A stretch of DNA of 35,090 bases from Acidobacteriota bacterium (GCA_043759095.1 JAYVMG010000627.1:1-35090), one strand, 5' to 3'; positions 781 through 31,561 are shown, counted from the first letter of the stretch. Translations and numbers: made by a program. Notes: generated from the sequence alone by a model not told the origin.

Positions 781-979
781 CAGGCGATTCTATGTGAGCC
801 CAGCGTCGCCGATGGCCGCGAGCGGCAGGTGGTAATCGGCCGTTGATGGCTGTCCCCTGACGGCCACACGAACTGTCCGGCCACGCGGACGCCGGCGTCG
901 TGCGCGGACGGACTCGCGCCGTGACTGGTCAACAATGCGCCCCGCGCGGTGGGCATCGTCGTTGCCAGACGCACTGCTC

Positions 980-1459
980 ATGAGCCCAACCGACGATCAG
1001 AAATCCTCTTCCTCGCGCCGCGAGTTTTGTGTGCGCACCTGCCAGGCGGTCTCGATGCTGACGATCGGCGCGGCGTTTCCGGCTTGCGGCGGCAGTTCGA
1101 TGTCAACCAGTTCGGCGCCGCCCCTGCCGACCGTCTCAGGCACGCTCGTCGGCCGCGATCTCTCGATCACAATTGACTCCGCATCCCCGCTGGCGGCCAT
1201 CGGCGGCGCGGCCACCATCATCGCGTCGACGGGCACGTATCTGATCGCGCGCACCGCGCAGAACACATTTACCGCGTTGACCGCGGTCTGTCCGCATGCA
1301 GGATGCGCCGTGTCCGGCATCGCCAATTCCCTCTACGTCTGCCCGTACCATGGCGCGGAGTTCAATCTGAGCGGCGGAGTCGTGCAGGGGCCGGCGACGT
1401 CCTCGCTGCGTCCGTTCCCGACGACGTTCGCCAATAATGTGGTGACGATCGGCGTGTGA
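980..1459 (+). CDS. Tat-exported Rieske [2Fe-2S] protein, probable lipoprotein
   Basis: SRREFC twin-arginine motif, hydrophobic stretch ending PAC, Rieske boxes CPHAGC and CPYHG, GPA-x3-L; start moved to ATG 980. Confidence 0.88.
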   Translation: MSPTDDQKSSSSRREFCVRTCQAVSMLTIGAAFPACGGSSMSTSSAPPLPTVSGTLVGRDLSITIDSASPLAAIGGAATIIASTGTYLIARTAQNTFTALTAVCPHAGCAVSGIANSLYVCPYHGAEFNLSGGVVQGPATSSLRPFPTTFANNVVTIGV

Positions 1460-1498
1460 GGCGATGAGAACGAGTCGGCGCGTGTTCTAATACGCCGC

Positions 1499-3985
1499 AT
1501 GACTTCTTCCCTTCGTGTGCGCGCGCTGGCCGTTGCGGCGATCGTCGCGACCGTCGCGCTCCGGATCGCCGCTGTCACGCGACTGCCGTCGGCGGACGGC
1601 CAGTTCTGGGACATCCAGGACACCTCGCCCTGGTCGCAGGACAGCGGCGGCATCGCCACGGGCGGACGCGCGAATCCCTTCAACGGTTTCGGCTATCTGA
1701 AGCTACGCGTGCGCACCGCGCGCGGCGCGACGCTCGTGCCACATCAGTACCTCACCGGTTTCGGACTTGCGCACGACGGCCACGAGCGTTTCGATTCGAT
1801 CACGCCCATCGTGTCCGGCGACATCCTCGTGGCGCGCGCGATCTACGCACCGAAGGATGCCAACTATCTCCGCTATGTCGACAGCTACGCTAACGCCGCC
1901 ACCGAGAATCGTGTCATCGACGTCGCCTGGGGTGGTGCGGCGGGCGCGTTCGAGGACGGCGGACCCGTGACGGTGGCGACCTCGTCGAACGGCAACGCGA
2001 CGATTGATCTGACGGACAGCTTCGTAACGGTGATGCAGAACGCGAGGCGCGCGAGCGATCCGATGCGCGGGCCGTCTGGTCATGGACCATCCGCACACGT
2101 GCTCGGCTCGCATGCCGCCGGACTGCTCACCGCCGTCGGCGATATGTACGCCGATCCTTTCACCAATCGCTGGCCTGGCTTCGATCCCGCGCACATCGGC
2201 TACGTGTTCACGCTGACGCTGAAGCCGGGACAGACCGTCGCTCTGATGACCTTCGTTGTGAAAGGGCTGAGCGAGATCTACGATCCCCGCGGCGGGTTCC
2301 CGATCCCGCTGCGCGATGCCCTGGTCACGCCGAAGTATTCCGCGCCGTACGCCGGCGATGCGCCGAAGATTCCCGGCGCGGGCGCGGAGATCGCGCACGT
2401 CACCGACATCGCGCGTCGCCTCGTCGCCGCGCCGGATGTGCGCGGGCTCACGCCATTGCAGCGATCGCAGATCGTCAACTGGCGCGTGTCTGCCGCTGCA
2501 TCGCGTACGGTCCCGGCATTCTCTGTCGTGGAGAGAACCGTTCCGCAGATCCAGGACGCGCTGACGCGTGGGGAAACGACCTCGGAAGATGTGGTCCGCG
2601 GATACCTGGCGCGCCTCTCGCTCCTCGATCGCCACGGCCCGATGCTGCGGTCGATGCTCGCGCTCAATCCGGCGGCGATCACGGCCGCGCGCACGCTCGA
2701 CGCCGAACGCGCGGCTGGCGGCGCCCGCGGTCCGATGCACGGCATCCCGGTCATTTTCAAAGACAACATCGACGTCCTCGGCCTGCCGACGACGGGCGGA
2801 TCGCGCGCGCTGGCGGATCATCGGCCGCGCCTCGACTCGCGCGTGGCCGCCGGCATGCGCCGCGCCGGCGCCGTGCTGCTCGGGAAGGCCAACCTCGACG
2901 AGTTTCCGTTCGGCGACTTCGGCATCAGCACCGTCGGCGGCACGATTGGCAACGCGTTCGACCCGACGCTCAGCACGTCCGGCTCGAGCGGCGGGACGGC
3001 GACCGCGGTCGCGACCAGCCTCGCCACGCTCGGCTTCGGCACCGACACATGCAACTCCCTGTCGAACCCGGCGTCGTTCGCGTCGCTCGCCACGATTCGC
3101 ACCACCCGCGGCCTCACGAGCCGCGCCGGCGTCATGCCGCTCAACACTTATCAGGACGCCGTCGGACCGATCGCGAAATCGATTCGCGAACTGGCGCTGG
3201 CGCTCGATCAGGTGACGGGGCCGGATCCCGAAGACGACGCGACGGCGGACGCGGCACGGCATATCAGTGGGTCGTTCACGGCCGCACTCGACGCCAACGC
3301 GCTGAAGGGCGCGCGCATCGGCGTCATCCGTCAGCTGTTTGTCGGGGTCACCGGCGAACGCGAGGCTGCTGCGACGATGGAGACCGTGATCGGGGAGATG
3401 CGGACGGCGGGTGCGACCGTTGTGGACGTGACGATTCGCGATCTCGACGCGCGCTACGTTCAGGCGCGAGGCAGCGCGCCGGGCTCACTGAAGGCGGCGT
3501 GGACGTCGTACCTCACCCGCGGCGCCGCGGCGGAAGCGCCGGTGCTCACGATCGAGAACCTGCTGGCGTCTGGGAAACTGGCGCCCGTCAGCGCAGGACG
3601 GCTGCGTGATGCGCTTCAGCCCACGCCCTCCGGCGATGAATTGCGCGCAGCCACCGCGAAGTTCTACGCGACGCGTGACGAATTCCGCGCGCTGTTTGTC
3701 GACGCGATGGAGCAGCAGCACCTGAACGGCCTGCTGTATCCCGCGAATCTCGCGCGGCCGAACACGCACGAAGGTGGGCTGGAGCGCTACGGCGAAGAAC
3801 CCGGCACGTGTCAGGAAAGCGCGATGACGGGCCTGCCGCAAGTCACCGTGCCGGCCGGCTTCCTCGGCAACAGGTATCCCTTCGGCGTTTCGTTTCTCGG
3901 ACGGTTGTGGGACGACCGCCGCCTGCTCGCGCTCGCCTACGCCTACGAGCAGGCCACGCACCATCGGCGCCCGCCGCCCCGCTAG
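1499..3985 (+). CDS. Secreted amidase-signature family protein with a ~330 aa unassigned N-terminal domain
   Basis: Signal peptide; GPMHGIPVIFKDN, GKANLDE, GSSGG, GTDT-x2-S motifs; GLPQVTVPAG and LAYAYEQAT C-terminus. Confidence 0.88.
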   Translation: MTSSLRVRALAVAAIVATVALRIAAVTRLPSADGQFWDIQDTSPWSQDSGGIATGGRANPFNGFGYLKLRVRTARGATLVPHQYLTGFGLAHDGHERFDSITPIVSGDILVARAIYAPKDANYLRYVDSYANAATENRVIDVAWGGAAGAFEDGGPVTVATSSNGNATIDLTDSFVTVMQNARRASDPMRGPSGHGPSAHVLGSHAAGLLTAVGDMYADPFTNRWPGFDPAHIGYVFTLTLKPGQTVALMTFVVKGLSEIYDPRGGFPIPLRDALVTPKYSAPYAGDAPKIPGAGAEIAHVTDIARRLVAAPDVRGLTPLQRSQIVNWRVSAAASRTVPAFSVVERTVPQIQDALTRGETTSEDVVRGYLARLSLLDRHGPMLRSMLALNPAAITAARTLDAERAAGGARGPMHGIPVIFKDNIDVLGLPTTGGSRALADHRPRLDSRVAAGMRRAGAVLLGKANLDEFPFGDFGISTVGGTIGNAFDPTLSTSGSSGGTATAVATSLATLGFGTDTCNSLSNPASFASLATIRTTRGLTSRAGVMPLNTYQDAVGPIAKSIRELALALDQVTGPDPEDDATADAARHISGSFTAALDANALKGARIGVIRQLFVGVTGEREAAATMETVIGEMRTAGATVVDVTIRDLDARYVQARGSAPGSLKAAWTSYLTRGAAAEAPVLTIENLLASGKLAPVSAGRLRDALQPTPSGDELRAATAKFYATRDEFRALFVDAMEQQHLNGLLYPANLARPNTHEGGLERYGEEPGTCQESAMTGLPQVTVPAGFLGNRYPFGVSFLGRLWDDRRLLALAYAYEQATHHRRPPPR

Positions 3986-20025: not shown

Positions 20026-20075
20026 GCTCGAAACTTCGTATGCGCGGGAGCGGTCGCGAGGGATGATGGATGTGC

Positions 20076-20384
20076 ATGGCGACCGAGACTGACATCCGCG
20101 AGGCGCTGCGCCACGTCGACGACCCCGAGATCGGCGTGAACATCGTCGATCTCGGGCTCGTGTATCGCATCGAGTTGGAGGGCGCCCACGCGCGCATCGC
20201 GATGACGATGACAAGCCCCGCGTGCCCGCTGGCGGACTACCTGAAGGATCTCGTCACGTCGGCGATCCGTGATCGCGTTCCTGACGTCGCGGACGTCGAC
20301 ATCGTCGTCGAGTGGGAGCCCCCGTGGGATCCGGACATGATGTCCGACGAAGCCAGGCGCCAGCTTGGCGAGGGCGAGCGCTGA
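20076..20384 (+). CDS. DUF59 / SufT-PaaD-like metal-sulfur cluster assembly factor
   Basis: DPEIGVNIVDLGLVY, MTMTSPACP, WEPPWDPDMMS. Confidence 0.93.
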   Translation: MATETDIREALRHVDDPEIGVNIVDLGLVYRIELEGAHARIAMTMTSPACPLADYLKDLVTSAIRDRVPDVADVDIVVEWEPPWDPDMMSDEARRQLGEGER

Positions 20385-21469
20385 TGCGGCTGGCGGCGCG
20401 CCGCGTGCCGATGGTGTTCGTCGGACTGCTGTCGATGGCGTGCGGCGTGTGGCTCGGTCTGGCGCGGCTTGGGTGGAATCTGCCGCTGCCATGGCAGGAC
20501 CAGTTGATTGCGCACGGGCCGCTGATGGTGTGCGGCTTTCTCGGGACACTCATCAGTCTGGAACGCGCGGTCGCCCTCGGCTCGCGATGGGGTTACGCTG
20601 CGCCAGCCCTCGTGGCGACCGGCGCCGTCGCTCTGGATCTTGGTCCCCTTGGCTCGTGTGCGCCGTTGCTGATCACGGCCGGCAGCCTGGTGATGGTGGC
20701 GATCTTCGTCGTCGTGTGGCGACGACAGGCATCGTTCTTCGTGGCCACGATGACCATCGGCGCGCTCGCCTGGACGTGCGGCAACGTCCAATGGCTTGGC
20801 GGGGCGCCGATCTATCGAGTCGTCTTCTGGTGGCTGACGTTCCTGGTGCTGACGATTGCGGGTGAGAGGCTCGAGCTGAACCGCGTGCTGCGGCCGACGC
20901 GTGCCGTGCGTGGGGCATTCATTCTCGCGGTCGTGACGATCGTGGCCGGTGTCGCCGCAGCGACGTGGTGGCCGGAGCCTGGCGTACGCATTCTGGGCGC
21001 GGGGCTTGTGGCGCTGACCTGCTGGCTGGCGCGCTACGATGTCGCACGGCGGACAGTCCGTCAGCACGGGCTCACGCGGTTCATGGCGGTGAGCCTCCTG
21101 GGAGGCTACGTGTGGCTAGGCACTGGCGGCGTGATCGCGGCCATCACCGGCGTGGCGATGCCAGGGGTGGTCTACGACGCGCTGCTCCACGCTGTCTTCG
21201 TCGGGTTCGTCATGTCGATGGTGTTCGCGCACGCACCGATCATTTTTCCTGCCGTCCTTGGTCTGCCGCTCGTATTCCGCCCGTCGTTCTACCTGCACGT
21301 CGGCGTCCTGCACCTGTCGTTGATCCTGCGGGTGGTTGGTGATCTCGTGGAGGTTCTCGGGCGCTGGCGGAGTTGGGGCGGTCTGCTCAACGCGGTGGCA
21401 CTGCTGCTGTTCATGGTCACTACGGGCCGTTCGATGGCCTTGGGAGGAATTCGTGGCGAATCCGTCTGA
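20384..21469 (+). CDS. Polytopic membrane protein, NnrS-like / heme-copper oxidase-like fold
   Basis: About 12 hydrophobic segments; HGPLMVCGFLGTLISLERAVAL, LTIAGERLEL, YDALLHAVFVGFVMSMVFAHAP; ATG 20384 overlaps upstream TGA. Confidence 0.78.
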   Translation: MRLAARRVPMVFVGLLSMACGVWLGLARLGWNLPLPWQDQLIAHGPLMVCGFLGTLISLERAVALGSRWGYAAPALVATGAVALDLGPLGSCAPLLITAGSLVMVAIFVVVWRRQASFFVATMTIGALAWTCGNVQWLGGAPIYRVVFWWLTFLVLTIAGERLELNRVLRPTRAVRGAFILAVVTIVAGVAAATWWPEPGVRILGAGLVALTCWLARYDVARRTVRQHGLTRFMAVSLLGGYVWLGTGGVIAAITGVAMPGVVYDALLHAVFVGFVMSMVFAHAPIIFPAVLGLPLVFRPSFYLHVGVLHLSLILRVVGDLVEVLGRWRSWGGLLNAVALLLFMVTTGRSMALGGIRGESV

Positions 21470-21788
21470 AATGCCGGGCGCGGCCCCGGTCGCGCCGCTG
21501 ACGCTGGCCGGCTACCAGGAGGGAGCGGTGGTCAGTCGCATACTGCTCAAGCGCGACGGCGGCACCGTCACGCTGTTCGCGTTCGATGAAGGCCAATCAC
21601 TGAGTGAGCACACCGCGCCGTTCGACGCCGTTGCACATGTGCTGGAGGGAGAAGCGCTCATCACGATCGCGGGTATGCCGCTCGCGGTGCGAACGGGGGA
21701 GATGGTGCTGATGCCCGCGAACCAGCCCCACGCGGTCAGCGCGCCGTCGCGGTTCAAGATGCTGCTGACGATGATCCGATCCGTGTGA
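21453..21788 (+). CDS. Cupin domain protein
   Basis: VTLFAFDEGQSLSEHTAPFDA, MPANQPHAV, FKMLL; GTG 21453 after GGAGG. Confidence 0.9.
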   Translation: MANPSEMPGAAPVAPLTLAGYQEGAVVSRILLKRDGGTVTLFAFDEGQSLSEHTAPFDAVAHVLEGEALITIAGMPLAVRTGEMVLMPANQPHAVSAPSRFKMLLTMIRSV

Positions 21789-21812: not shown

Positions 21813-22970
21813 TCAATGCGCGCCGGCTGCCCCCGCACTGGTCGCCAGTGTCTCGGCGCGCGCGGATGTGAGCAGCGGTTCGATGTTCGGGCCCGGCTCA
21901 TACGCGCACAATGGATCCGAAGCCATCACCGCGCCGGTCGCGGCGAACGCCCTCGACCGGGATCCGCCGCAGATGTCCCGGAACCGGCAGCGGCCGCACT
22001 TGCCCATGAGCGCGTCCGTGTCGCGGAGGCGCGTGAAGACGTCATCGGTGCGGTACACCTCCGCCAGGCTCGTCGTTCGCACGTTGCCGCACTGCACGGG
22101 CAGGAAGCCGCTCGGGCAGATGTTGCCGAGATGGTCGACGAACACGAAGCCGTTACCGTCGTTCACGCTGCGTGGCGCGCGAAGCTGGCGGCGGCTCGCC
22201 ACCGCCTGCGACGGAAGGCCGTCACGCACCCGCTCATGCTCGCGCTGCCACACCACGCGCTGGTAGTGCGGCGCCTCCGTCGTCTTGATGCCGAATGGCG
22301 ACGTGAGCGAGAGGTCATAGAGGCGGTTCAGCAGCTTCTCGCACTCGACGTCGTTGATCTGCTCGAGGCCGGCGCCGCGGCCGGTCTGGATCAGGAAGAA
22401 CAGGGCCCAGAGCGTCAGCGGGAACTCGGCGACGCGAGCGGCCATCGCGTCGAAGTCCGCGAGCGTCCGCCGGCTGATCGTCGAGTTGATCTGCAAGGGC
22501 AGCCCCAGGTCGATGGTGGCCTCGATGATCCGCATCGTCCAGTGGTACGAACCGCGCACCCCACGGAATGCATCATGTGATTCGGGCGTCGGGCCGTCGA
22601 GGCTGACCGCGATGCGCGAGAGCCCGGCCTCCTTCAGCGCGGCGAGCTTGGCCGGCGTGGCCGCGGCCGTACCACTCGGCGTGAGCGCGACGGTCAGGCC
22701 GGCGCCGGCGGCGTATCGCACGAGTTCCACGAGATCGGGCCGCCGCATCGGGTCGCCGCCCGTCAGTACAAAGAGCGGCGGCTTCTCGCCGAATCCACGC
22801 ACCTGATCGATCAGTCGGAACGCCTCTTCCGTGGTGAGCTCGCGCGGATCGCGGCGGTGTATCGCGTCCGCGCGGCAGTGCACGCAGGCGAGCGCGCAGG
22901 CGCGCGTCACTTCCCAGATCACGAGAAATGGCGCGCGGTTGAAGTCCGGGGCGAAAGCGGCAGGCGTCAT
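21813..22970 (-). CDS. Radical SAM/SPASM protein, TIGR04053-like (NirJ/AhbD-related)
   Basis: VIWEVTRACALACVHCRA (CxxxCxxC), LTGGDP, KTTEAPHY, VNDGNGFVFV, CPSGFLP, GKCGRCRFRDICGGSRSRA, DPLC; start ATG 22970. Confidence 0.9.
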   Translation of the reverse strand: MTPAAFAPDFNRAPFLVIWEVTRACALACVHCRADAIHRRDPRELTTEEAFRLIDQVRGFGEKPPLFVLTGGDPMRRPDLVELVRYAAGAGLTVALTPSGTAAATPAKLAALKEAGLSRIAVSLDGPTPESHDAFRGVRGSYHWTMRIIEATIDLGLPLQINSTISRRTLADFDAMAARVAEFPLTLWALFFLIQTGRGAGLEQINDVECEKLLNRLYDLSLTSPFGIKTTEAPHYQRVVWQREHERVRDGLPSQAVASRRQLRAPRSVNDGNGFVFVDHLGNICPSGFLPVQCGNVRTTSLAEVYRTDDVFTRLRDTDALMGKCGRCRFRDICGGSRSRAFAATGAVMASDPLCAYEPGPNIEPLLTSARAETLATSAGAAGAH

Positions 22971-23003
22971 GCCTCCAGCATCGCGCGGGGCCCGGCAACT
23001 GCC

Positions 23004-23019
23004 TATGACCCGCGTCATA
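23004..23019. promoter_or_regulatory. Crp/Fnr-type palindromic site 1 (radical SAM promoter)
   Basis: TATGAC-CCGC-GTCATA; centre 23011.5 is 41.5 nt upstream of ATG 22970; -10-like GATGCT at 22982-22977. Confidence 0.8.
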
Positions 23020-23048
23020 CGCCAGAGAAGACAAGAAAAGACACGGCG

Positions 23049-23064
23049 TATGACGGCCGTCATA
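23049..23064. promoter_or_regulatory. Crp/Fnr-type palindromic site 2 (nos operon promoter)
   Basis: TATGAC-GGCC-GTCATA; centre 23056.5; -10 TACAGT 23086-23091 predicts +1 at 23098, i.e. -41.5. Confidence 0.82.
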
Positions 23065-23130
23065 GGGCCGCATGTCTGCGGGTTCTACAGTGGCCTCATG
23101 ACGATTGACGTCGCTTGCTGGAGGGCGCTG

Positions 23131-24297
23131 ATGACACGCCACACGATTCGACGCGGACTCGCAATCCTCTCGCTGCTGACCGCCGGCGTCTTCCTGGCCG
23201 GCTGTTCGTCCAGTCGGCCCGCCGCCGATGCGGCGTCGCTCACGCCACCATTTCTCGACACGCCCGTTGCGCCGCGACCGGCGATGACGTCGGCGACGGT
23301 CGAGAAGGGCAAGCAGCTGTACGACGCCAACTGTGTCCAGTGCCATGGGCCGGAAGGCAAGGGCGATGGCTACGGCGCGCCGTTTCTCGTCCCGCCGCCG
23401 CGCGATTTCACCGGCGGCCAGTTCAAGTTCAGGACGACGGCGGGAGGCCTGCTGCCGACCGACGACGACCTGTTCCGCACGATTTCGCGCGGCGCGAACG
23501 GCACGGGCATGCCGCCGTGGAAGTACCTGCTCAACGATGAGGAGCGCTGGGCGCTTGTCGAATACGTGAAGAGTTTCGAGCCTCGCTTTGCCAATGCGCG
23601 AACCCTCAAGGCCATGCCGCTGCCGGATGCCCCCGGCAGGTCGCGGGACGCCGTCCACGGCAAAGCCGTGTATCTGAAAATGCAGTGCGAGAAGTGCCAC
23701 GGCGAAGATGGCCGCGGCGTCGGGCCCTCGTCGAATGCGATGGTCGACGCCAAGGGTCGGCACGTGAACGGTCGCGACTTCACCCAGCCCGGGTCGTACC
23801 GCACCGGCTGGACCGAACGCGAGATCATCCGCACGCTCGAAACAGGGATGAACGGCGTACCGATGCCGTCGTACACGGGCATCATGTCGAAGCAGGAAGA
23901 GTACGACCTTGTGGCCTACCTGATGAGTATCGCGGGTCCGGGCTCCGGCAATCAGAAGCGTCAGCTCGCCAAGAGCATGGAAGGCGTCGGCGCACCTGAT
24001 CGGGTCATCACGCTGCGCGAGCACGCGTGGAAATACGAGCCGGCGGAGATTCACGTGAAGCGCGGAGAAGTGGTGAAGATCGAATTTTCGACGACCGACA
24101 ACGGTCTGGGTGCTGGGCACGGCTTCGCACTCGACGGGCTCGATCAGAGCGTGTTCATCAACGGCGCCATGGTCGGCGCGCCGCTCTCGGTCACGTTCAA
24201 GGTCGACACCCCCGGGCGCTACAACTTCTACTGCGCGACGCAATGCAGCACGACCGAACTGCACCCCAAGATGCACGGCGTGCTGATCGTCGACTAA
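23131..24297 (+). CDS. Lipoprotein: two c-type cytochrome domains plus C-terminal CuA-like cupredoxin domain
   Basis: Lipobox LAGC; CVQCH...GMP, CEKCH...PMP; GHGF...YCATQCSTTELHPKMHG; GGAGG RBS before ATG 23131 (in-frame alternative ATG 23098). Confidence 0.9.
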   Translation: MTRHTIRRGLAILSLLTAGVFLAGCSSSRPAADAASLTPPFLDTPVAPRPAMTSATVEKGKQLYDANCVQCHGPEGKGDGYGAPFLVPPPRDFTGGQFKFRTTAGGLLPTDDDLFRTISRGANGTGMPPWKYLLNDEERWALVEYVKSFEPRFANARTLKAMPLPDAPGRSRDAVHGKAVYLKMQCEKCHGEDGRGVGPSSNAMVDAKGRHVNGRDFTQPGSYRTGWTEREIIRTLETGMNGVPMPSYTGIMSKQEEYDLVAYLMSIAGPGSGNQKRQLAKSMEGVGAPDRVITLREHAWKYEPAEIHVKRGEVVKIEFSTTDNGLGAGHGFALDGLDQSVFINGAMVGAPLSVTFKVDTPGRYNFYCATQCSTTELHPKMHGVLIVD

Positions 24298-24318
24298 CTA
24301 CGGACCTGTGGAGCTGAC

Positions 24319-26148
24319 ATGAAACGCCATTCGTTCCTTCTCGTCGCCGCGACCATCGTCGCCACGCTTGCTGCCGTGCACTCCATGGGCTGCGGCGCCT
24401 CGCGCTCGGCCCGATCGCTGGCCGCTGAAAAGGTGTATGTCGCACCCGGTGAGCTCGACAAGTACTACGCCTTCCTCTCGGGCGGCCAAAGCGGATCGGT
24501 GTTCGTGGTCGGGATTCCGTCGGGTCGTCTGATCCGTGAAATCCCGGTGTTCGAACCCCGGGCAGCGTATGGCTACGCGATGAACGACAACGATCCCCGC
24601 CGGCAGGAACTCGTCGCGACCGGCGGCGTATGGGGCGACACCCACCATCCCGTCCTGTCGGAAACCAACGGCATGCCCGATGGGAAGTACCTCTGGATCA
24701 ACGATCTCGCCAACGGTCGGTTGGCGCGCATCCGGCTCGACTATTTCGAAGCCGACCGCATCCTCAAGCTGCCGAATATGCAGGGGGCGCACGGCATCGC
24801 CGTGGTCTCGCCGAACACGAAGTACATCGTCGTCAACGGTGAGTTCGAGCTGCCGACCGACGGTCTCGTGACGAATCCGGCGCCCTACACGTCGGTCGTC
24901 TCGTTCGTCGATCCCGACAGCATGCAGGTGAAGTTCCAGGTCCGCATCAACGGCAACATCGATATTGCCGACACGTCGAAGGATGGCCGCTACTCGTTCT
25001 CGACGGTCTACAACCTCGAGCAAGGCAAGGACATGGGATCGATGATTCAGTACGACCGTGATGCGGTCGCGGCCATCGACATTCCGGCGGCCGAGAAGGC
25101 CATCGCGGCCGGACGCGGCGAGGTGCGCAACGGCGCGCCGATTCTCGACCCTGAGACAAATCCCGGTGTGCTGACGCTGATTCCGGTTCCCAAGAATCCT
25201 CACGGGATCAACGTGACGCCTGATGGCCGCTATGCCATCGCCGCCGGGAAGTTGTCGCCGACGGTCACGATCATCGACGCGCACACGCTGAAGATCATCG
25301 CCGAACCCGAGGTCGGCCTGGGGCCGCTGCACACCACGTTCGACGATCGCGGCAACGCGTTCACATCGCTGTTTCTCGACAGCCAGGTCGTGAAGTGGAA
25401 CATCGACAAGGCGGTGAAAGGCGCACCCGACTACATCGTGGACCGCATCAACGTGCACTACAACATCGGTCATCTGCAGGCGGTCGGCGGCGACCACATG
25501 CATCCGGCGGGCGACTACCTCATCGCGCTCAACAAGCTGTCGAAGGACATGTATGCGCCGGTTGGTCCCGATCTACCGGAAAACCAGGAGATCATCGACA
25601 TCTCCGGCGAGAAGATGAAGCTGCTCGCGTCGTTCCCGACGCCGCCCGAGCCGCACGACGCGACGTTCATGGCCGTGTCAGTGCTGAAGCCGCTCGTCCA
25701 CCAGACGTACACGCCGGCCGACAATGCGGTTCAAGCCGGCAAGGAGCGGGTCGTGCGCACCGCGCCGCACGCCGTGACGGTGGACATGACGCTGATTCGC
25801 AGCGCCTATACGCCGGACAAGGTCGAGGTGCGGGAAGGCGATCAGGTGACGCTGAAGATCACCAACGTGGAGACGATTCGCGACATGATTCACGGCTTTG
25901 CGCTGCCGGACCACAACTTGAACATTGCGCTCGCGCCCGGGTATACCAAGACCATCACGTTCGATGCCGGCAAGCCGGGCGTCTATTGGTACTACTGCAC
26001 GAATTTCTGCAGCGCGCTCCACCTCGAGATGCGCGGGCGGATGCTCGTGCAACCGAAAGATTCGACCGTCACGCTGACCGACTGGCACGCGGCGGCGAAC
26101 GTCCAAGGGCAGGTCGTTGCCGGCGTGCCATCGACCGGGGCCAAGTAA
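24319..26148 (+). CDS. nosZ: Nitrous oxide reductase
   Basis: All seven CuZ His contexts (DTHH, GAHG, PKNPHG, GLGPLH, NIGH, EPHD) and CuA ligands (HGF, CTNFCSALHLEM). Confidence 0.97.
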   Translation: MKRHSFLLVAATIVATLAAVHSMGCGASRSARSLAAEKVYVAPGELDKYYAFLSGGQSGSVFVVGIPSGRLIREIPVFEPRAAYGYAMNDNDPRRQELVATGGVWGDTHHPVLSETNGMPDGKYLWINDLANGRLARIRLDYFEADRILKLPNMQGAHGIAVVSPNTKYIVVNGEFELPTDGLVTNPAPYTSVVSFVDPDSMQVKFQVRINGNIDIADTSKDGRYSFSTVYNLEQGKDMGSMIQYDRDAVAAIDIPAAEKAIAAGRGEVRNGAPILDPETNPGVLTLIPVPKNPHGINVTPDGRYAIAAGKLSPTVTIIDAHTLKIIAEPEVGLGPLHTTFDDRGNAFTSLFLDSQVVKWNIDKAVKGAPDYIVDRINVHYNIGHLQAVGGDHMHPAGDYLIALNKLSKDMYAPVGPDLPENQEIIDISGEKMKLLASFPTPPEPHDATFMAVSVLKPLVHQTYTPADNAVQAGKERVVRTAPHAVTVDMTLIRSAYTPDKVEVREGDQVTLKITNVETIRDMIHGFALPDHNLNIALAPGYTKTITFDAGKPGVYWYYCTNFCSALHLEMRGRMLVQPKDSTVTLTDWHAAANVQGQVVAGVPSTGAK

Positions 26149-26723
26149 TGAAGGTGCGGCTCCTCTACGCCGCCGCCGCCGCGCTCGTCGCGGCGACGCT
26201 AGCGTTCCCGCTGTGGGGCTTCGCCATGGCTGCGCCGCAATACCCTGACGAGACCCTGCACCTGCAGGTGACGCGGGCCGGGATTGTCGGCGACGTGCAG
26301 GAGGTGTCGACCCTGCAGCATTTCATCGGCGTGCGGTTCCCGACTGAGTTGCCGGAGTTGAGGTGGGCGACGGCCGCGATCGTCGCGCTTGCAGCCCTCC
26401 TGCTGCTCGGCGCGCTTGTCGGCGGTGGCGCGGTCGGCCGCGTGTATCGCGTGCTGTGCGCCGTTGCGCTGGTGACATTTCTCGTGGCATCAGCCGCCGT
26501 GGTGCAGACGCGGTTGTACCAGGTCGGCCACGATCGCGATCCGGACGCGCCACTGCGCGGCATGCGCAATTTTACCCCGCCGCTTGTCGGCCCGGCGAAG
26601 GTCGGCAATTTTACTGTGTGGTCATTTCCGCATACCGGCGCCCTCATGCTGCTGTTGGCGGCAGGCCTCGCCGTCTATGGAGTCCGCCTTCAGCCGGACT
26701 CTTCGGGAAAGGCGGCCGCGTGA
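26148..26723 (+). CDS. nosB: NosB-like membrane protein
   Basis: PLW...APQYP, GDV.....LQHFIG, GH.RDP.AP, PPLVG.....NFT..S.P match the clade II NosB pattern; ATG overlaps nosZ TAA. Confidence 0.85.
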   Translation: MKVRLLYAAAAALVAATLAFPLWGFAMAAPQYPDETLHLQVTRAGIVGDVQEVSTLQHFIGVRFPTELPELRWATAAIVALAALLLLGALVGGGAVGRVYRVLCAVALVTFLVASAAVVQTRLYQVGHDRDPDAPLRGMRNFTPPLVGPAKVGNFTVWSFPHTGALMLLLAAGLAVYGVRLQPDSSGKAAA

Positions 26724-28123
26724 GGCGTCGAACCGCGCTCATCGCCGTCGTCCTCGCTCTTGCCGCTGCGCGCGCGGACGCGCGGACCTGGCTCGTCGGC
26801 GGCGCTGGCGCGGACTTTCCGCTGATCGCGCCAGCGATAGCGGCTGCGTCAGCGGGAGACGTCGTCCGCGTGCGTGGCGGCGTCTATCGTGAAGACCTGG
26901 TTCTCGACAAGTCCATCACCCTCACAGGCGAAGGGCATCCGACGCTGTTTGGCACTGGCCTCGGGTCGGTCATCACCATCACGGCGCCGGGATGTGAAGT
27001 GAGGGGGTTCACGATCGAAGGCAGCGGCATCGGCGAGACCAACGAGATGGACGCCGCCGTGCAGGTCCGGTCCAACGGCAATCGCATCGTGGACAACACG
27101 ATGCGTCGAGTGTTTTACGGCGTCGTGCTCGCCGATGCCATGCGGAACGAGATCGCCGACAACGACATTCAGGGCTTGCGTGACCTTGCCTTCGGTCGGC
27201 GCGGCGACGGCATTTATCTGTACCGCGCGCCGGAGAACTTCGTCGCGCGCAACCGCATCTTCGGCGAGCGCGACGGCATCTATTTCCAATATGCCCCGCG
27301 TGGCCGGGCGGTCGACAACGTGGTTTCGGATTCACGTTACGGGCTGCACGACATGTTTTCCGACGACGCGGTGATCGCCAGGAATACGTTCAGCGACTCT
27401 GTCGTCGGAGCCAACATCATGAACTCGCGGAGGGTGCGCCTCGAAGGAAACACGATCTCCCGCAATCGCGGCGTGCCGGGCATCGGTCTGACGCTGAAGG
27501 ATTGCGACGACTCGACGATTCGGCACAACGTGATCGTCGGCAACGCGCGGGGGCTCCTCCTCGACGGATCGTCCGTGAACCGGTTCAGCGACAACACGTT
27601 CCGCGCCAACGACACCGCGGTCACGCTCTTCTCCAGCGCCGAACAGAACGTGTTCAGCGGCAACCGGTTTGTCGACAACTGGAGCGATCTCGTGCTGAGC
27701 GGCCGCGACTCCGGCACACGCTGGACTGCAGACGGGCGCGGCAACTACTGGAGCCGGTATCGCGGCTTCGACTTCGATGGCGATGGGATCGGCGACACGC
27801 CGCATCCGCTCGTCGGCGCGTTCGAGCGTCTCGAAGGAGCAAATCCGGCAGCACGCATCTTTCTGCAAAGCCCCGCGGCGGCCGGTCTGGAACTCGCCGC
27901 ACGACTGAGTGGACGCACGGCGGACGACGCGACTGACGATCGCCCGATGGTGCGCCAGCCGCAACCCGCCCTTCCGGCGTCGTCGCGGCCGACCGCGGGA
28001 ATCGCCGGCGTCGCAGCGCTGCTCATCGTCGGGTGCGCGCTGCGCGTTTCGAGGCGTCAGCGGAGGAAGATCGCCGTCAGCGGCCATCCTGATTCCAGAG
28101 GAATCGATCCATGCTCACACTGA
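26720..28123 (+). CDS. nosD: Periplasmic NosD maturation protein
   Basis: Parallel beta-helix repeats, RGDGIYL, RDGIY, RYGLHDM, GNYWSRYRGFDFDGDGIGD; GTG 26720 overlaps nosB TGA. Confidence 0.93.
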   Translation: MRRRTALIAVVLALAAARADARTWLVGGAGADFPLIAPAIAAASAGDVVRVRGGVYREDLVLDKSITLTGEGHPTLFGTGLGSVITITAPGCEVRGFTIEGSGIGETNEMDAAVQVRSNGNRIVDNTMRRVFYGVVLADAMRNEIADNDIQGLRDLAFGRRGDGIYLYRAPENFVARNRIFGERDGIYFQYAPRGRAVDNVVSDSRYGLHDMFSDDAVIARNTFSDSVVGANIMNSRRVRLEGNTISRNRGVPGIGLTLKDCDDSTIRHNVIVGNARGLLLDGSSVNRFSDNTFRANDTAVTLFSSAEQNVFSGNRFVDNWSDLVLSGRDSGTRWTADGRGNYWSRYRGFDFDGDGIGDTPHPLVGAFERLEGANPAARIFLQSPAAAGLELAARLSGRTADDATDDRPMVRQPQPALPASSRPTAGIAGVAALLIVGCALRVSRRQRRKIAVSGHPDSRGIDPCSH

Positions 28124-28911
28124 CCGGCGTCACGAAGGCCTTCGGCAATCGCCGCGTGCTCGATCACCTCGACCTCGAGATCGGCGCGGGCGAGAGCATC
28201 GCCATGCTCGGCGCGAACGGGTCCGGCAAGACAACGGCGCTGCGCTGCAGCGTCGGGCTGGCGAGGCCGGACGAGGGCCGCATCACCGTTGGCGGCGTCG
28301 ACATGGCGCGCGATCCCATTGGCGCGCGAGGCCGCCTCAGTTACCTGCCGCAGAAGTCGGTCTTTCCGGCGACGCTGACCGTGCGCGAGACGCTGGCGGT
28401 AGTGGCGCGGCTGCGCGGGATTCCGGCCGTCGCCGTCGATCGCGAGCTCGACGCGTGCGGCCTCGTTGCGCTGGCGGACCGCGGCGTCGGCCACCTGTCC
28501 GGCGGAGAGCGGCAACGCCTCGCGATGGCCGTGGCGTTTCTGCCGACGGTCGACGTGTACCTGTTCGACGAACCGTCGGCCAATCTCGATCCCGTGGCGT
28601 CGCGCATGTTATTCCAGCGCGCCAGGCAGCTGAAGCGCGACGGCCACACGCTGCTGTTCACGACGCACATTCCGGCCGACGTGCGTCATCTGGCGACGCG
28701 GATCGTGTTGCTTCGCGACGGACGGATTGAATCCGAAGCGGCCGGACAGTTCGAGCTCCGCCGCTACGAGCGGATGCTGGAGCGCGACATGTGGGGGGAC
28801 GAACATGAAGACGTGGCGCTTGATCCTCGCGTTGCTGCTGGCGTCGGTGTCGGCGGCAGCCTGTGCGAAACGGAGTATGTCGGCCGAGCCGTTGCCGCTC
28901 GATCGCGTTGA
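28111..28911 (+). CDS. nosF: ABC transporter ATPase NosF
   Basis: GANGSGKT, LSGGE, LFDEP, TTH; position after nosD. Confidence 0.9.
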   Translation: MLTLTGVTKAFGNRRVLDHLDLEIGAGESIAMLGANGSGKTTALRCSVGLARPDEGRITVGGVDMARDPIGARGRLSYLPQKSVFPATLTVRETLAVVARLRGIPAVAVDRELDACGLVALADRGVGHLSGGERQRLAMAVAFLPTVDVYLFDEPSANLDPVASRMLFQRARQLKRDGHTLLFTTHIPADVRHLATRIVLLRDGRIESEAAGQFELRRYERMLERDMWGDEHEDVALDPRVAAGVGVGGSLCETEYVGRAVAARSR

Positions 28912-29242
28912 ATGCGCACGGTGCCGGATGCTGATATCAACGGACCGCGGAGGCGGGGAGATCGTGTCGGCGACAGACGACACGCGCTTCTACGACGACA
29001 TCGGCTGTCTCGCGGCCGATTGGGCGGCACATCACGGTGACGCTCGAGCGTTCGTGCGAACCGCGGGCGGGGGATGGACCGACGCGCAGGTCGCGTCGTT
29101 TGCGCAGCCGACCGACGCCAGGACGGCGATGGGCTCCGGTATCGCGGCGTTCGCCGCGGCGGCCGATGCACGCGCCGCCGATCCCACGGGCCGAGTGCTG
29201 ACCTTCGACGATGTCGTGCACCTCTCGGGAGGGCAGCGATGA
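28805..29242 (+). CDS. nosL: NosL copper chaperone lipoprotein
   Basis: MKTWRLILALLLASVSAAAC lipoprotein signal, CARCRM, YDDIGC, TAMGSG. Confidence 0.88.
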   Translation: MKTWRLILALLLASVSAAACAKRSMSAEPLPLDRVECARCRMLISTDRGGGEIVSATDDTRFYDDIGCLAADWAAHHGDARAFVRTAGGGWTDAQVASFAQPTDARTAMGSGIAAFAAAADARAADPTGRVLTFDDVVHLSGGQR

Positions 29243-30066
29243 TGACTCATCTTCTGACGATCGCTCAACTGGAGCTGACAGCGGCCGTCCGGTTGAAGTG
29301 GATCCAGCTGCTGACCGCTGCCTTCGCGTTGCTGGCGGCCGCTGCGGCGTACTCTGCCGGCGTCGCCAATGAGGTCACGGGCGCGGAGGGCTTTGCGCGC
29401 ACTACGATGGCGCTTATTCCGGTCGTGCTCATTCTGGCGCCGCTGTCGGCGCTGATTCTGGGAGTGTCGGGTCAGGCCTCGGAACCGGGCAGCGAGCCGT
29501 TCCTGTTCGGTCAGCCAGTTGGTCGCTCGACTGTTCTGGTTGGTCGTTGGCTCGGCGAATCCGTCGCGCTCGGCGCCTCCATCGTCACCGGCCTGGGGAT
29601 CGGGGGCGTCATCATCGCGTCTGGCAGCGGCGCCGATGGCCTGCTGCGATTCATCTTCTTTGTGCTCTCGTCGGTTGTACTTGCCACGATCTTCCTGTCG
29701 ATCGCCGCCGCGATCGCGTCGGCCACCGACACGCGCGTCGTGGCGCTCGGGGTCGCCACGTTCGCATGGTTCTTCTTTGTGTTGCTCTATGACGGCGCCG
29801 CGCTCTCTCTCGCGGGATGGCTCACGGGATCGCTCGGCGGCCGGATCCTCTTCGGGTCAGTCTTTGGAAATCCGACGGACTTGATTCGTGTGGTTGCACT
29901 ATCGGTGGCGGGCGCCCCCAATGTTCTCGGGGCTGCCGGCGACGCGTGGGTACGCTTCTTAGGCGGGGCGACGGGCGCAGCCGTCGCGGCGATGGTCGCG
30001 CTCACGGTGTGGATGATTGCGCCGCTCCTCCTCGGCGTACGGCTGATCAGCACGCGCGATCTGTAG
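29239..30066 (+). CDS. nosY: ABC transporter permease NosY
   Basis: Multiple TM segments, QPVGR..VLVGRWLG, WFFFVLLYD, NPTDLIR; ATGA overlap with nosL. Confidence 0.88.
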   Translation: MMTHLLTIAQLELTAAVRLKWIQLLTAAFALLAAAAAYSAGVANEVTGAEGFARTTMALIPVVLILAPLSALILGVSGQASEPGSEPFLFGQPVGRSTVLVGRWLGESVALGASIVTGLGIGGVIIASGSGADGLLRFIFFVLSSVVLATIFLSIAAAIASATDTRVVALGVATFAWFFFVLLYDGAALSLAGWLTGSLGGRILFGSVFGNPTDLIRVVALSVAGAPNVLGAAGDAWVRFLGGATGAAVAAMVALTVWMIAPLLLGVRLISTRDL

Positions 30067-30074
30067 GGCGGCCC

Positions 30075-30764
30075 TCAGGACACGGCGACCGTCTCCAGAG
30101 CAGCGCGATCGACGATCACAAACCCATCCTTGTCGGTTCGGACCACGCCATCTTTGCCCCACCGGCTCATGATGCGTATCGACGTCTCAATCGTTGTGCC
30201 GATCATGTCGGCGAGTTCCTGTCGCGACAGCACGAGGGGAATGAAGACGCCCTCATCACGGCGTTGCCCGATGTCTGTGCCCAGCTTCAGAAAGAAGCGT
30301 GCGAGTCGCCCTTCAATGCGGCCGCCCGACAATTCGGTCAGGCGGTTGGTCAGTTCCACCAGACGATGCGTCAGCCCCACCAAGAGACCGCGAACCATGG
30401 TGGGATAGCCCTCGAGCAGCGAGAAGAATGCCTGGCGCGGGATGAGCAGGCAGGAGGTCGGTTCCAGCGCGAGCGCACTGGCTGGATAAGGACGGGCTTC
30501 GTATACGGCCACGGCGCCCACCGGATCTCCCGGACCGAAGAGTTCGAGGATCACATCCGTGCCGCGCGGTGTCGTCTTGAACACTTTCACTCGGCCGGTC
30601 AGGACCGTGTACATCAGGTCTGATCCGTCGCCCTCACTGAACAACGTGGCGCCTTTCTCGAAGGCGCGCACCGTCGCGACGGCCGCCAGGCGTTGCCGGT
30701 CGTCGGGCTTGAGACGGCGGAACAGGACACTCCGGCGCAGGGCGTCGTCGACTAGTTCGGACAT
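30075..30764 (-). CDS. Crp/Fnr family regulator (DNR/NnrR/HcpR-like, no Fe-S Cys cluster)
   Basis: cNMP-type barrel (LFSEGD, GRVKV, YPASA), RLARF, HTH LSRQELADMIGTTIETSIRIMS; only one Cys. Confidence 0.93.
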   Translation of the reverse strand: MSELVDDALRRSVLFRRLKPDDRQRLAAVATVRAFEKGATLFSEGDGSDLMYTVLTGRVKVFKTTPRGTDVILELFGPGDPVGAVAVYEARPYPASALALEPTSCLLIPRQAFFSLLEGYPTMVRGLLVGLTHRLVELTNRLTELSGGRIEGRLARFFLKLGTDIGQRRDEGVFIPLVLSRQELADMIGTTIETSIRIMSRWGKDGVVRTDKDGFVIVDRAALETVAVS

Positions 30765-30826: not shown

Positions 30827-31561
30827 ATGAATGAACCATTGACAACGAGAACGGTCGGCGAAGTCGTGTCCGCCGACTTCCGCACCGTCGCGGTGTTCGA
30901 ACAATTTGGCATCGACTTCTGCGGTAGCGGTCGCCGTTCGCTTGAAGATGCCTGTCGTGCGGCCGCGGCCAATCCGGACACCGTGGTCCGCGCCCTTGAT
31001 GCGCTGCCGCCAGCGATCGAAACCAACGACGACGTGACGCGATGGCCGGTTCCGCAGCTGATCGACTTCATTGTGTCGACACATCACGCGTACGTGCGAT
31101 CGGCGATGCCAACGATCGCGAGGCGCCTCGCAAAACTGAACGAGGTGTATAGCTCGCGGCATCCGGAACTCTCGCGTGTGGCCGCGTACTTCGACCAGGT
31201 GCGCCGCGATCTCGAGCAGCACATGCTGAAGGAGGAGCAGGTGCTCTTTCCGTACGTGCGCGATCTCGCCGAATGCGGCGAGAGCTGCGGCTGGACGCGG
31301 AGCCCGTTCGGTACAGTGGAAAATCCGATCCGGATGATGGAGCGAGAGCATCAGGAAGTCGGCGATGCGATGCGTCTGATTGGCGAATTGACCCTTGGCT
31401 ACGCGCCGCCCGAGGACGGCTGCACGACGTATTTGATCGGCATGGCCGAACTCCAGCGTTTCGAGCGCGACCTGCGCCGGCACGTGCATCTGGAGAACAA
31501 TGTGCTGTTTCCCGCTGCCGTGCGGATTGAACAGCGGCTGTGCGGAATCGCCGGAGCCTGA
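30827..31561 (+). CDS. ric: Iron-sulfur cluster repair di-iron protein Ric (YtfE/ScdA/DnrN)
   Basis: ScdA-N-like GIDFC.., hemerythrin ligands THHAY, HMLKEE, REH, HVHLENNVLFP; GGAG RBS. Confidence 0.93.
   Translation: MNEPLTTRTVGEVVSADFRTVAVFEQFGIDFCGSGRRSLEDACRAAAANPDTVVRALDALPPAIETNDDVTRWPVPQLIDFIVSTHHAYVRSAMPTIARRLAKLNEVYSSRHPELSRVAAYFDQVRRDLEQHMLKEEQVLFPYVRDLAECGESCGWTRSPFGTVENPIRMMEREHQEVGDAMRLIGELTLGYAPPEDGCTTYLIGMAELQRFERDLRRHVHLENNVLFPAAVRIEQRLCGIAGA

Follow-up and report, generated by a model that had tools for sequence, protein, structure and literature searches.

A dihaem cytochrome c–cupredoxin lipoprotein encoded ahead of nosZ in Acidobacteriota is a candidate electron donor to nitrous oxide reductase

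An open reading frame (ORF) at positions 23131-24297 of a 35,090-nucleotide (nt) stretch from an Acidobacteriota bacterium (GCA_043759095.1 JAYVMG010000627.1:1-35090; this whole stretch is hereafter the window) encodes a 388-residue protein that joins two cytochrome c domains to a C-terminal cupredoxin domain similar to the CuA domain of the nitrous oxide reductase NosZ. The gene is real and strongly conserved. Its stop codon ends at 24297 and the ATG of nosZ lies at 24319, which agrees with the 21-nt gap given in the original prediction. From its sequence, the product is probably a lipid-anchored electron carrier with three redox centres, dedicated to the NosZ encoded 21 nt downstream. This role is favoured because the dihaem module is of the kind found in redox partners, because CuA-type domains are electron-transfer sites, and because the gene is co-oriented with nosZ and was never found without it where downstream DNA exists.

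Domain architecture and the CuA-like domain

The ORF gives a stop-free translation on the plus strand. The N-terminus of the protein, MTRHTIRRGLAILSLLTAGVFLAGC, is a predicted signal peptide that closes, following the usual lipobox rule, with LAGC and Cys25, and it is the sole hydrophobic segment of the protein. Two haem-attachment motifs, CVQCH (residues 68-72) and CEKCH (186-190), are each followed by a distal Met-Pro, in GTGMPPW (Met127-Pro128) and GVPMPSY (Met245-Pro246), respectively. The C-terminal third contains GHGF, with His330, and the stretch C368-ATQ-C372-STTEL-H378-PK-M381, that is, C-x3-C-x5-H-x2-M. The lipobox, both haem motifs with their distal Met-Pro and the cupredoxin ligand pattern had all been predicted, and each was recovered at its expected position. 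Pfam identified two Cytochrom_C stretches (PF00034, 1e-26; 94.5 bits versus a cut-off of 21.3) and a Cupredoxin_1 domain (4.2e-8, residues 293-387). A longer ORF starting at GTG 22831 was rejected, since homologues start near Met1 and a GGAGGG precedes 23131; a chance ORF was rejected in view of the 708 homologues described below.

These homologues were retrieved by a word-seeded search of 5.8 billion proteins (E 0.001 or better). All of the best 120 of the 708 have the same three Pfam domains, at 77-99% identity, and the database names are limited to 'c-type cytochrome', 'mono/diheme cytochrome c family protein' and 'cbb3-type subunit 2'. In an exhaustive HMMER search of representatives clustered at 50% identity, the dihaem module proved very common (4316 proteins at E 1e-10 or better), and few representatives reached the cupredoxin end: that of the protein's own cluster, P0123, P0124, P0125, P0129, P0136 and P0140. 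The loop is unchanged in P0123, P0124 and P0125, which are 44-48% identical to the window protein. In an alignment of 40 homologue sequences (A1), the Cys and His residues of both CxxCH motifs, His330 and Cys372 are invariant, and Cys25, Cys368, His378, Met381, Met127 and Met245 are each at least 90% conserved. All 49 homologues examined, the most distant 42% identical overall, have the spacing C-x3-C-x5-H-x2-M, with a near-constant loop, C-[AS]-T-[QD]-C-S-x3-L-H-P-x-M.

Several variants were observed among the relatives. In a Thermoanaerobaculia metagenome-assembled genome (MAG), two tandem cytochrome c–cupredoxin genes precede nosZ (L011, 1501-2637 and 2845-3981); their products are 54% and 67% identical to the window protein and both contain C-x3-C-x5-H-x2-M. 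In a long-read Vicinamibacterales MAG (L017, 6001-8872), the cytochrome c–cupredoxin gene and nosZ lie in several frame-shifted pieces, which may be assembly indels or a decaying cluster. P0140 (648 residues) has a ThuA domain fused at its C-terminus. The genome of the window also encodes a paralogue of the dihaem module elsewhere (L068, G000:C26:1258-1887, minus strand), within a 446-residue open frame, with 44% identity to residues 58-268.

Among the NosZ models of NCBIfam, the CuA end of TIGR04246 (Sec-type NosZ) matched the last 87 residues of the protein best (8.1e-11). TIGR04244 also matched the cupredoxin end (4e-7), and the matches of the Tat-type and clade III NosZ models were weaker than that of TIGR04246. 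The matches to these models span just the last 87-95 residues and score well under the cut-offs set for whole proteins. A BLASTP comparison with the CuA domain of the neighbouring NosZ gave 33% identity over 86 residues. When aligned, His330, Cys368, Cys372, His378 and Met381 coincide with the five side-chain ligands of NosZ CuA, with a two-residue insertion in the loop. The domain and its NosZ counterparts share Y-Y/F-C-x3-C-S...L-H-x2-M-G, and the loop differs only in CS-TTE-LH versus CSA-LH. The same two-residue gap appeared in HMMER alignments with the COX2 CuA domains 6ptt and 6pty, and HMMER likewise lined up the ligand positions with those of 3sbp-type NosZ. The ligand loop, which had been predicted to be expanded by two residues relative to CuA, is therefore so by comparison with both families. 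Given the ligand alignments, the shared motif and the identity with the neighbouring NosZ, the C-terminal domain is, at the level of sequence, homologous to the CuA domains of NosZ and COX2, with that of NosZ the nearest.

An AlphaFold2 model built on the 40-sequence alignment had a mean predicted local distance difference test score (pLDDT) of 79.8 and a predicted template modelling score (pTM) of 0.73. The best Foldseek matches of the cupredoxin domain were the CuA domain of Thermus ba3 oxidase (2cua, 8e-8) and the engineered CuA proteins 6ptt (8.5e-8) and 6pty. NosZ structures followed at about 3e-7 (1qni, 2.6e-7), with the type 1 protein auracyanin close after (5.4e-7). The domain thus shares with NosZ and COX2 CuA (e.g. 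2cua, 3sbp) the cupredoxin fold and the aligned His, Cys, Cys, His and Met positions, and differs from them in having x5 instead of x3 in the loop, in lying outside any terminal oxidase or reductase and in lacking a match to the COX2 family of Pfam.

Other proteins with a CuA-type site were compared. In subunit II of caa3 oxidases, a CuA-type cupredoxin and cytochrome c are naturally fused for electron transfer from haem c to copper, and caa3-type clusters were among the protein-atlas feature neighbours (scores 0.87-0.88, a lead only). The window protein, by contrast, has the domains in the opposite order, contains two haem domains and lacks transmembrane helices. The protein was therefore rejected as a caa3 oxidase subunit II, given the order cytochrome c-cytochrome c-cupredoxin, the lack of transmembrane helices and the lack of a COX2 profile match; a Pfam scan found no oxidase genes within the window. 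The same atlas gave, as a further lead, Gemmatimonadota 'cytochrome c + plastocyanin/azurin' proteins (score 0.91). A Sco or PCuAC chaperone was likewise rejected: the fold is a cupredoxin according to Foldseek, and neither Pfam nor NCBIfam returned a Sco or PCuAC match. PmoD offers a precedent for a non-canonical CuA-like site in an operon accessory protein (PMC6189053). Both proteins would be accessory proteins of an operon with a CuA-like site that departs from the standard. The PmoD site forms between two monomers in another part of the fold, whereas the window ligands all lie in one domain at canonical positions.

Linkage to nosZ and origin of the fusion

The species-representative genomes contained 17 loci with a full-length or cupredoxin-containing homologue. 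In all 15 with downstream DNA, nosZ was directly downstream; the remaining two stop at a contig end. Scanning metagenomes with the distant relatives as seeds gave 80 loci, in 34 of which the match reached the C-terminus. In every one of these with enough downstream DNA (30/30), the next gene was nosZ, encoding a NosZ 52-89% identical to that of the window, and the other four end within 270 nt. At the rest of the metagenome loci, either the contig ended within a cupredoxin-bearing match or the cytochrome was dihaem-only, without nosZ within 4 kb. In a sample of the phylum, three of 401 genomes were positive, including the window's own, and both further genomes had nosZ directly downstream. The original prediction had considered that homologues might turn out to be mostly unlinked to nosZ; instead, linkage was found in 15/15, 30/30 and 2/2 loci.

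We also examined co-occurrence in 301 genomes of the same order, 102 of which encode any NosZ. The cupredoxin domain was matched strongly (E 1.7e-23 or better) in 11 genomes. These are exactly the genomes with a NosZ of the window type (62-100% identity), and the cytochrome c–cupredoxin gene and nosZ are adjacent in each. None of the 91 genomes of the order with other NosZ types (41-50% identity) had a match of this strength. Within this order, the domain therefore co-occurs exactly with a single NosZ lineage (11/11 genomes). A maximum-likelihood NosZ tree of 36 rows, with 31 linked sequences and five unlinked ones hand-picked from the order sample, placed the 31 linked NosZ on one side of a branch (support 93/91) and the five unlinked ones outside.

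The dihaem half has a different set of relatives. Residues 56-270 match 6h5l_B, the best solved relative (phmmer 7e-45, 38% identity; Foldseek 2e-19, target-normalised template modelling score, TMt, 0.81), and both Met127 and Met245 align with Met-containing segments of that chain. It is Kustc0457, the dihaem subunit of the Kuenenia 'reducing HAO-like protein complex Kustc0457/Kustc0458' and, going by the entry title, a dedicated redox partner of a nitrogen-cycle enzyme; it differs from the window protein in lacking a cupredoxin domain and in partnering another enzyme. Closer to nos, two of five other nos clusters fetched from the order (L075 and L078) encode a dihaem cytochrome c directly upstream of nosZ. 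These cytochromes are 37-39% identical to residues 50-283 and have no cupredoxin. Most simply, the fusion would have arisen in the ancestor of the window's NosZ lineage, when a dihaem cytochrome already linked to nos acquired a duplicate of a NosZ-type CuA domain.

Proposed electron transfer and competing explanations

Family scans of the cluster detected no nosR, nosX, nosG/H, Rieske/cytochrome b, azurin or Sco gene, and the cytochrome c–cupredoxin protein is consequently the only redox protein there besides NosZ. We infer that it would face the periplasm as a lipoprotein and act as the dedicated donor of the adjoining NosZ. Loaded with haem and copper, it would take electrons from the quinol pool, probably via a cytochrome bc-type complex whose genes lie elsewhere in the genome, and pass them along the two class-I c-type haems to the C-terminal cupredoxin copper centre, possibly binuclear, and from there by direct contact to NosZ CuA. 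Two cytochrome b loci are present in the genome (92.7% complete, 667 contigs), so a bc-type complex could supply the electrons. Donor and enzyme would share the membrane surface, since both carry lipoprotein-type signals. A complex prediction with NosZ (residues 36-582), the protein (45-388) and two haems scored 0.00; it was run without controls and counts neither way on binding.

Several observations weigh against this proposal, or against a CuA centre as its last step. The canonical CuA spacing, C-x3-C-x3-H-x2-M, is not present. With a threshold of E 0.01, Pfam matched just the generic Cupredoxin_1 here, not PF00116 (COX2). The ligand loop (residues 371-380) has low model confidence, with a pLDDT of about 61. 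P0129 has 15 residues between the second Cys and the His, the Cys, His and Met ligands are absent from the distant relatives P0136 and P0140, and P0090, one of the 40 aligned sequences, has Asn at the position of His378. Because the loci and genome collections of species representatives overlap and many rows are close kin, the linkage counts show consistency, not independent events. Linkage to nosZ in the genome would also fit a maturation role equally well. Among the sequencing runs listed, none is recorded as RNA.

Whether the expanded loop forms a true binuclear CuA centre is the more tentative part. We consider it possible, at somewhat less than even chances, that it does, and that this centre is the last step of a lipid-anchored haem-haem-Cu2 wire docking CuA-to-CuA on the lipoprotein NosZ. 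Alternatively, the protein may still be an electron carrier whose copper site is mononuclear (type 1, or a red or green variant) or otherwise not CuA, the long loop preventing a Cu2S2 diamond. A spacing of five residues from Cys to His, against three in NosZ and COX2, would favour such a site, as would the restriction of the Pfam result to Cupredoxin_1 and the proximity of auracyanin to the CuA domains in Foldseek (5.4e-7 versus 8e-8). Mononuclear cupredoxins are also discussed as NosZ partners in PMC13122619, with azurin encoded upstream of nosZ. A mononuclear site would, on the other hand, need one Cys only, and both Cys, both His and the Met are present in 49/49 homologues, each aligned to a CuA ligand; the nearest sequence relatives are moreover the CuA domains of NosZ. 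We therefore regard a mononuclear or other non-CuA site as unlikely.

Two further alternatives assign the protein a task other than routine electron supply. It could be a maturation factor, with the Cys-x3-Cys/His/Met domain passing Cu(I) to NosZ CuA (or CuZ), or with the haems keeping the CuA cysteines or copper reduced during assembly. The strict linkage to nosZ, the position among the nosDFYL maturation genes and the low-confidence ligand loop, which could reflect flexibility, are all compatible with this, and a SCO-family copper chaperone lies upstream of nosZ in another Vicinamibacteria strain (PMC13122619); none was seen in the window cluster. Yet the domain has the fold of a cupredoxin, with electron-transfer CuA domains as its nearest matches, and neither the thioredoxin-like fold of Sco nor that of PCuAC; the fused cytochrome domains are homologous to the redox-partner subunit 6h5l_B and to nos-linked cytochromes without a copper domain, and NosL is already there for copper delivery, all of which makes maturation quite improbable. 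The protein could instead serve a redox task such as reductive activation or repair of CuZ, in the manner of NosR, or the scavenging of O2 or nitric oxide (NO) at the membrane to protect NosZ. The absence of nosR and nosX from the cluster, the NO-stress repair gene (RIC) and Crp/Fnr regulator flanking it, and the restriction to one NosZ lineage, perhaps with special needs, point in this direction. Against it, the protein has neither a catalytic domain nor an open-coordination haem motif, the distal Met of both haems is conserved, and the sequence offers nothing to tell such a role from plain electron donation; we give it little credence. Dedicated electron donation to NosZ remains the role we favour.

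Gene neighbourhood, regulation and significance

The coordinates of the gene, its parts and its neighbours are given in Table 1. The protein at the NosB position had no Pfam or NCBIfam match and is named only by its place. The window NosZ fell short of both NCBIfam NosZ cut-offs (625 bits), reaching 584 bits with the Tat-type model and 535 with the Sec-type one. A twin-arginine motif is lacking, and the signal resembles that of a lipoprotein (...HSMGC). A [ML/F]-G-C lipobox was found in 10 of 12 type-A NosZ N-termini inspected. From these sequences, the window NosZ seems to belong to a separate lineage that has a gene in the NosB position and may be lipid-anchored. In one Vicinamibacterales MAG (L005:7148-8974), nosZ has an in-frame TAG at codon 556, just ahead of the CuA motif, which may be an assembly error or mark a pseudogene.

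Table 1. Features of the nos region of the window. Positions are counted from the first nucleotide of the window.
Feature	Position	Strand	Basis or conservation
Whole ORF, 388 residues plus stop; predicted lipoprotein, dihaem cytochrome c with CuA-like cupredoxin	23131..24297	+	
Predicted signal peptide with lipobox LAGC (Cys25)	23131..23205	+	Translation; Cys25 conservation
Cytochrome c domain 1, about residues 51-150; CVQCH at 23332-23346, distal Met127	23281..23580	+	
Cytochrome c domain 2, about residues 165-270; CEKCH at 23686-23700, distal Met245	23623..23940	+	
Cupredoxin domain, residues 289-388; His330 at 24118-24120	23995..24294	+	
Ligand loop C368-x3-C372-x5-H378-x2-M381	24232..24273	+	Spacing in 49/49 homologues
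Ribosome-binding site GGAGGG, 5 nt ahead of ATG	23120..23125	+	Conserved in close-relative alignment
Palindrome 1, TATGAC-N4-GTCATA, in the region shared with the divergent radical SAM gene	23004..23019	.	
Palindrome 2, TATGAC-N4-GTCATA, candidate Crp/Fnr-type site	23049..23064	.	
TACAGT, candidate -10 hexamer	23086..23091	+	Conserved in L001-L003
nosZ, 609 residues, lipoprotein-like signal (SMGC)	24319..26148	+	
Four-helix membrane protein, 191 residues, NosB position	26148..26723	+	Name by position; follows nosZ in related loci
nosD 26720-28123, nosF 28111-28911, nosL 28805-29242, nosY 29239-30066	26720..30066	+	Pfam
Crp/Fnr-family regulator closing the cluster, convergent	30075..30764	-	Same place in L001, L002, L005, L012

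Upstream of the gene, the two palindromes lie 45 bp apart, and in the close relatives L001-L003 their arms are kept and the N4 spacer and flanks vary. Their core, TGAC-N4-GTCA, occurs four times in the window versus 0.56 expected, a number reached by none of 100 shuffles. The centre of palindrome 2 (23056.5) lies 29.5 nt ahead of TACAGT. In class II Fnr-dependent promoters the site is centred at -41.5 and the hexamer spans -12 to -7, a geometry that palindrome 2 and TACAGT would match. A scan for consensus sigma-70 promoters found none in 22900-24400, which would fit an activator-dependent promoter. The operator and -10 element that had been predicted at 23049-23091 are thus borne out as regards the palindrome, which is real and conserved; the hexamer is present and was not called by the scan. 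Together with the Crp/Fnr-family regulator, the palindromes form a candidate regulator-operator pair of the nos operon.

Further genes lie around the cluster. Divergent from the operon, a radical S-adenosylmethionine (SAM)/SPASM gene (21813-23063, minus strand) scored 459.8 bits with TIGR04053, over the cut-off, and 317 bits with the AhbD haem b synthase model, under it. This gene is at the same place in eight genome loci (L001, L002, L003, L005, L007, L008, L010 and L014) and in L105 and L115 among the metagenome loci; in the more distant group, none was detected in the 4 kb upstream. Just past the regulator, 30827-31561 encodes a RIC/ScdA-family di-iron protein for iron-sulfur cluster repair (TIGR03652, 213 bits, over the cut-off), an NO-stress gene beside the nos cluster. 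Just upstream of the nos region, a 385-residue multi-helix membrane protein without a Pfam or NCBIfam match (20312-21469) is encoded between a SufT-like gene of iron-sulfur (FeS) assembly (20070-20384) and a small cupin gene (21471-21788). At the start of the window (935-3985), a gene for a Rieske [2Fe-2S] domain protein (935-1459) precedes an 828-residue ORF, the C-terminal 450 residues of which are an amidase and the N-terminal 360 of which have no family match.

Pseudoazurin is an electron donor of NosZ. Azurin and pseudoazurin resemble the window protein in being cupredoxins encoded beside nosZ or used as donors, and differ from it as separate small type 1 proteins with one Cys ligand, unfused to cytochromes. 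In a nosCZBLDFYC operon, nosC denotes c-type cytochromes (bioRxiv 10.1101/2024.01.15.574570), and cytochromes in clade II nos clusters are proposed to carry electrons to NosZ (PMC13685413; bioRxiv 10.1101/2024.01.15.574570). Like nosC and 'cyt-c' of clade II, the window gene encodes a c-type cytochrome in a nos operon; its product adds a C-terminal CuA-like cupredoxin and a predicted lipoprotein anchor and is confined to one NosZ lineage. Since NosC and azurin genes beside nosZ have been described, the idea of a cytochrome or cupredoxin donor encoded there is already known. The literature searched does not describe such a fusion, a CuA-type ligand set on an expanded loop, or so strict an association with a single NosZ lineage.

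No cytochrome c–cupredoxin protein of a nos cluster is described in the open-access literature searched, and figures or supplements of PMC13122619 may show Acidobacteriota nos clusters. The original prediction, which could place the architecture with no named Nos protein, stands in that only generic cytochrome names and no description in the papers searched were found; it somewhat overstated the novelty, as the dihaem half is homologous to cytochromes that lie ahead of other nosZ types and have no cupredoxin.

Outside the models for clade I (NosR) and Campylobacterota (NosGH/C1/C2), the electron route to NosZ is described as proposed and not known (PMC13685413). Vicinamibacteria nosZ is reported to be among the most abundant nosZ groups in soils (PMC13122619). 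For one NosZ lineage of the Vicinamibacteria group, the cytochrome c–cupredoxin protein is, on its sequence and gene context, a concrete candidate donor, and it could serve as a genomic marker of that lineage. With a binuclear site, the protein would offer a natural CuA whose loop is longer than usual, housed in a small domain of soluble type, and this would be relevant to the tuning of CuA by loop length. Should the proposed haem-haem-Cu2 wire exist, it would represent the first natural CuA in a dedicated electron carrier rather than a terminal oxidase or reductase, and would provide a third way of wiring N2O reductase to the respiratory chain, beside NosR and NosGH/C1C2, in Acidobacteriota of soil and sediment.

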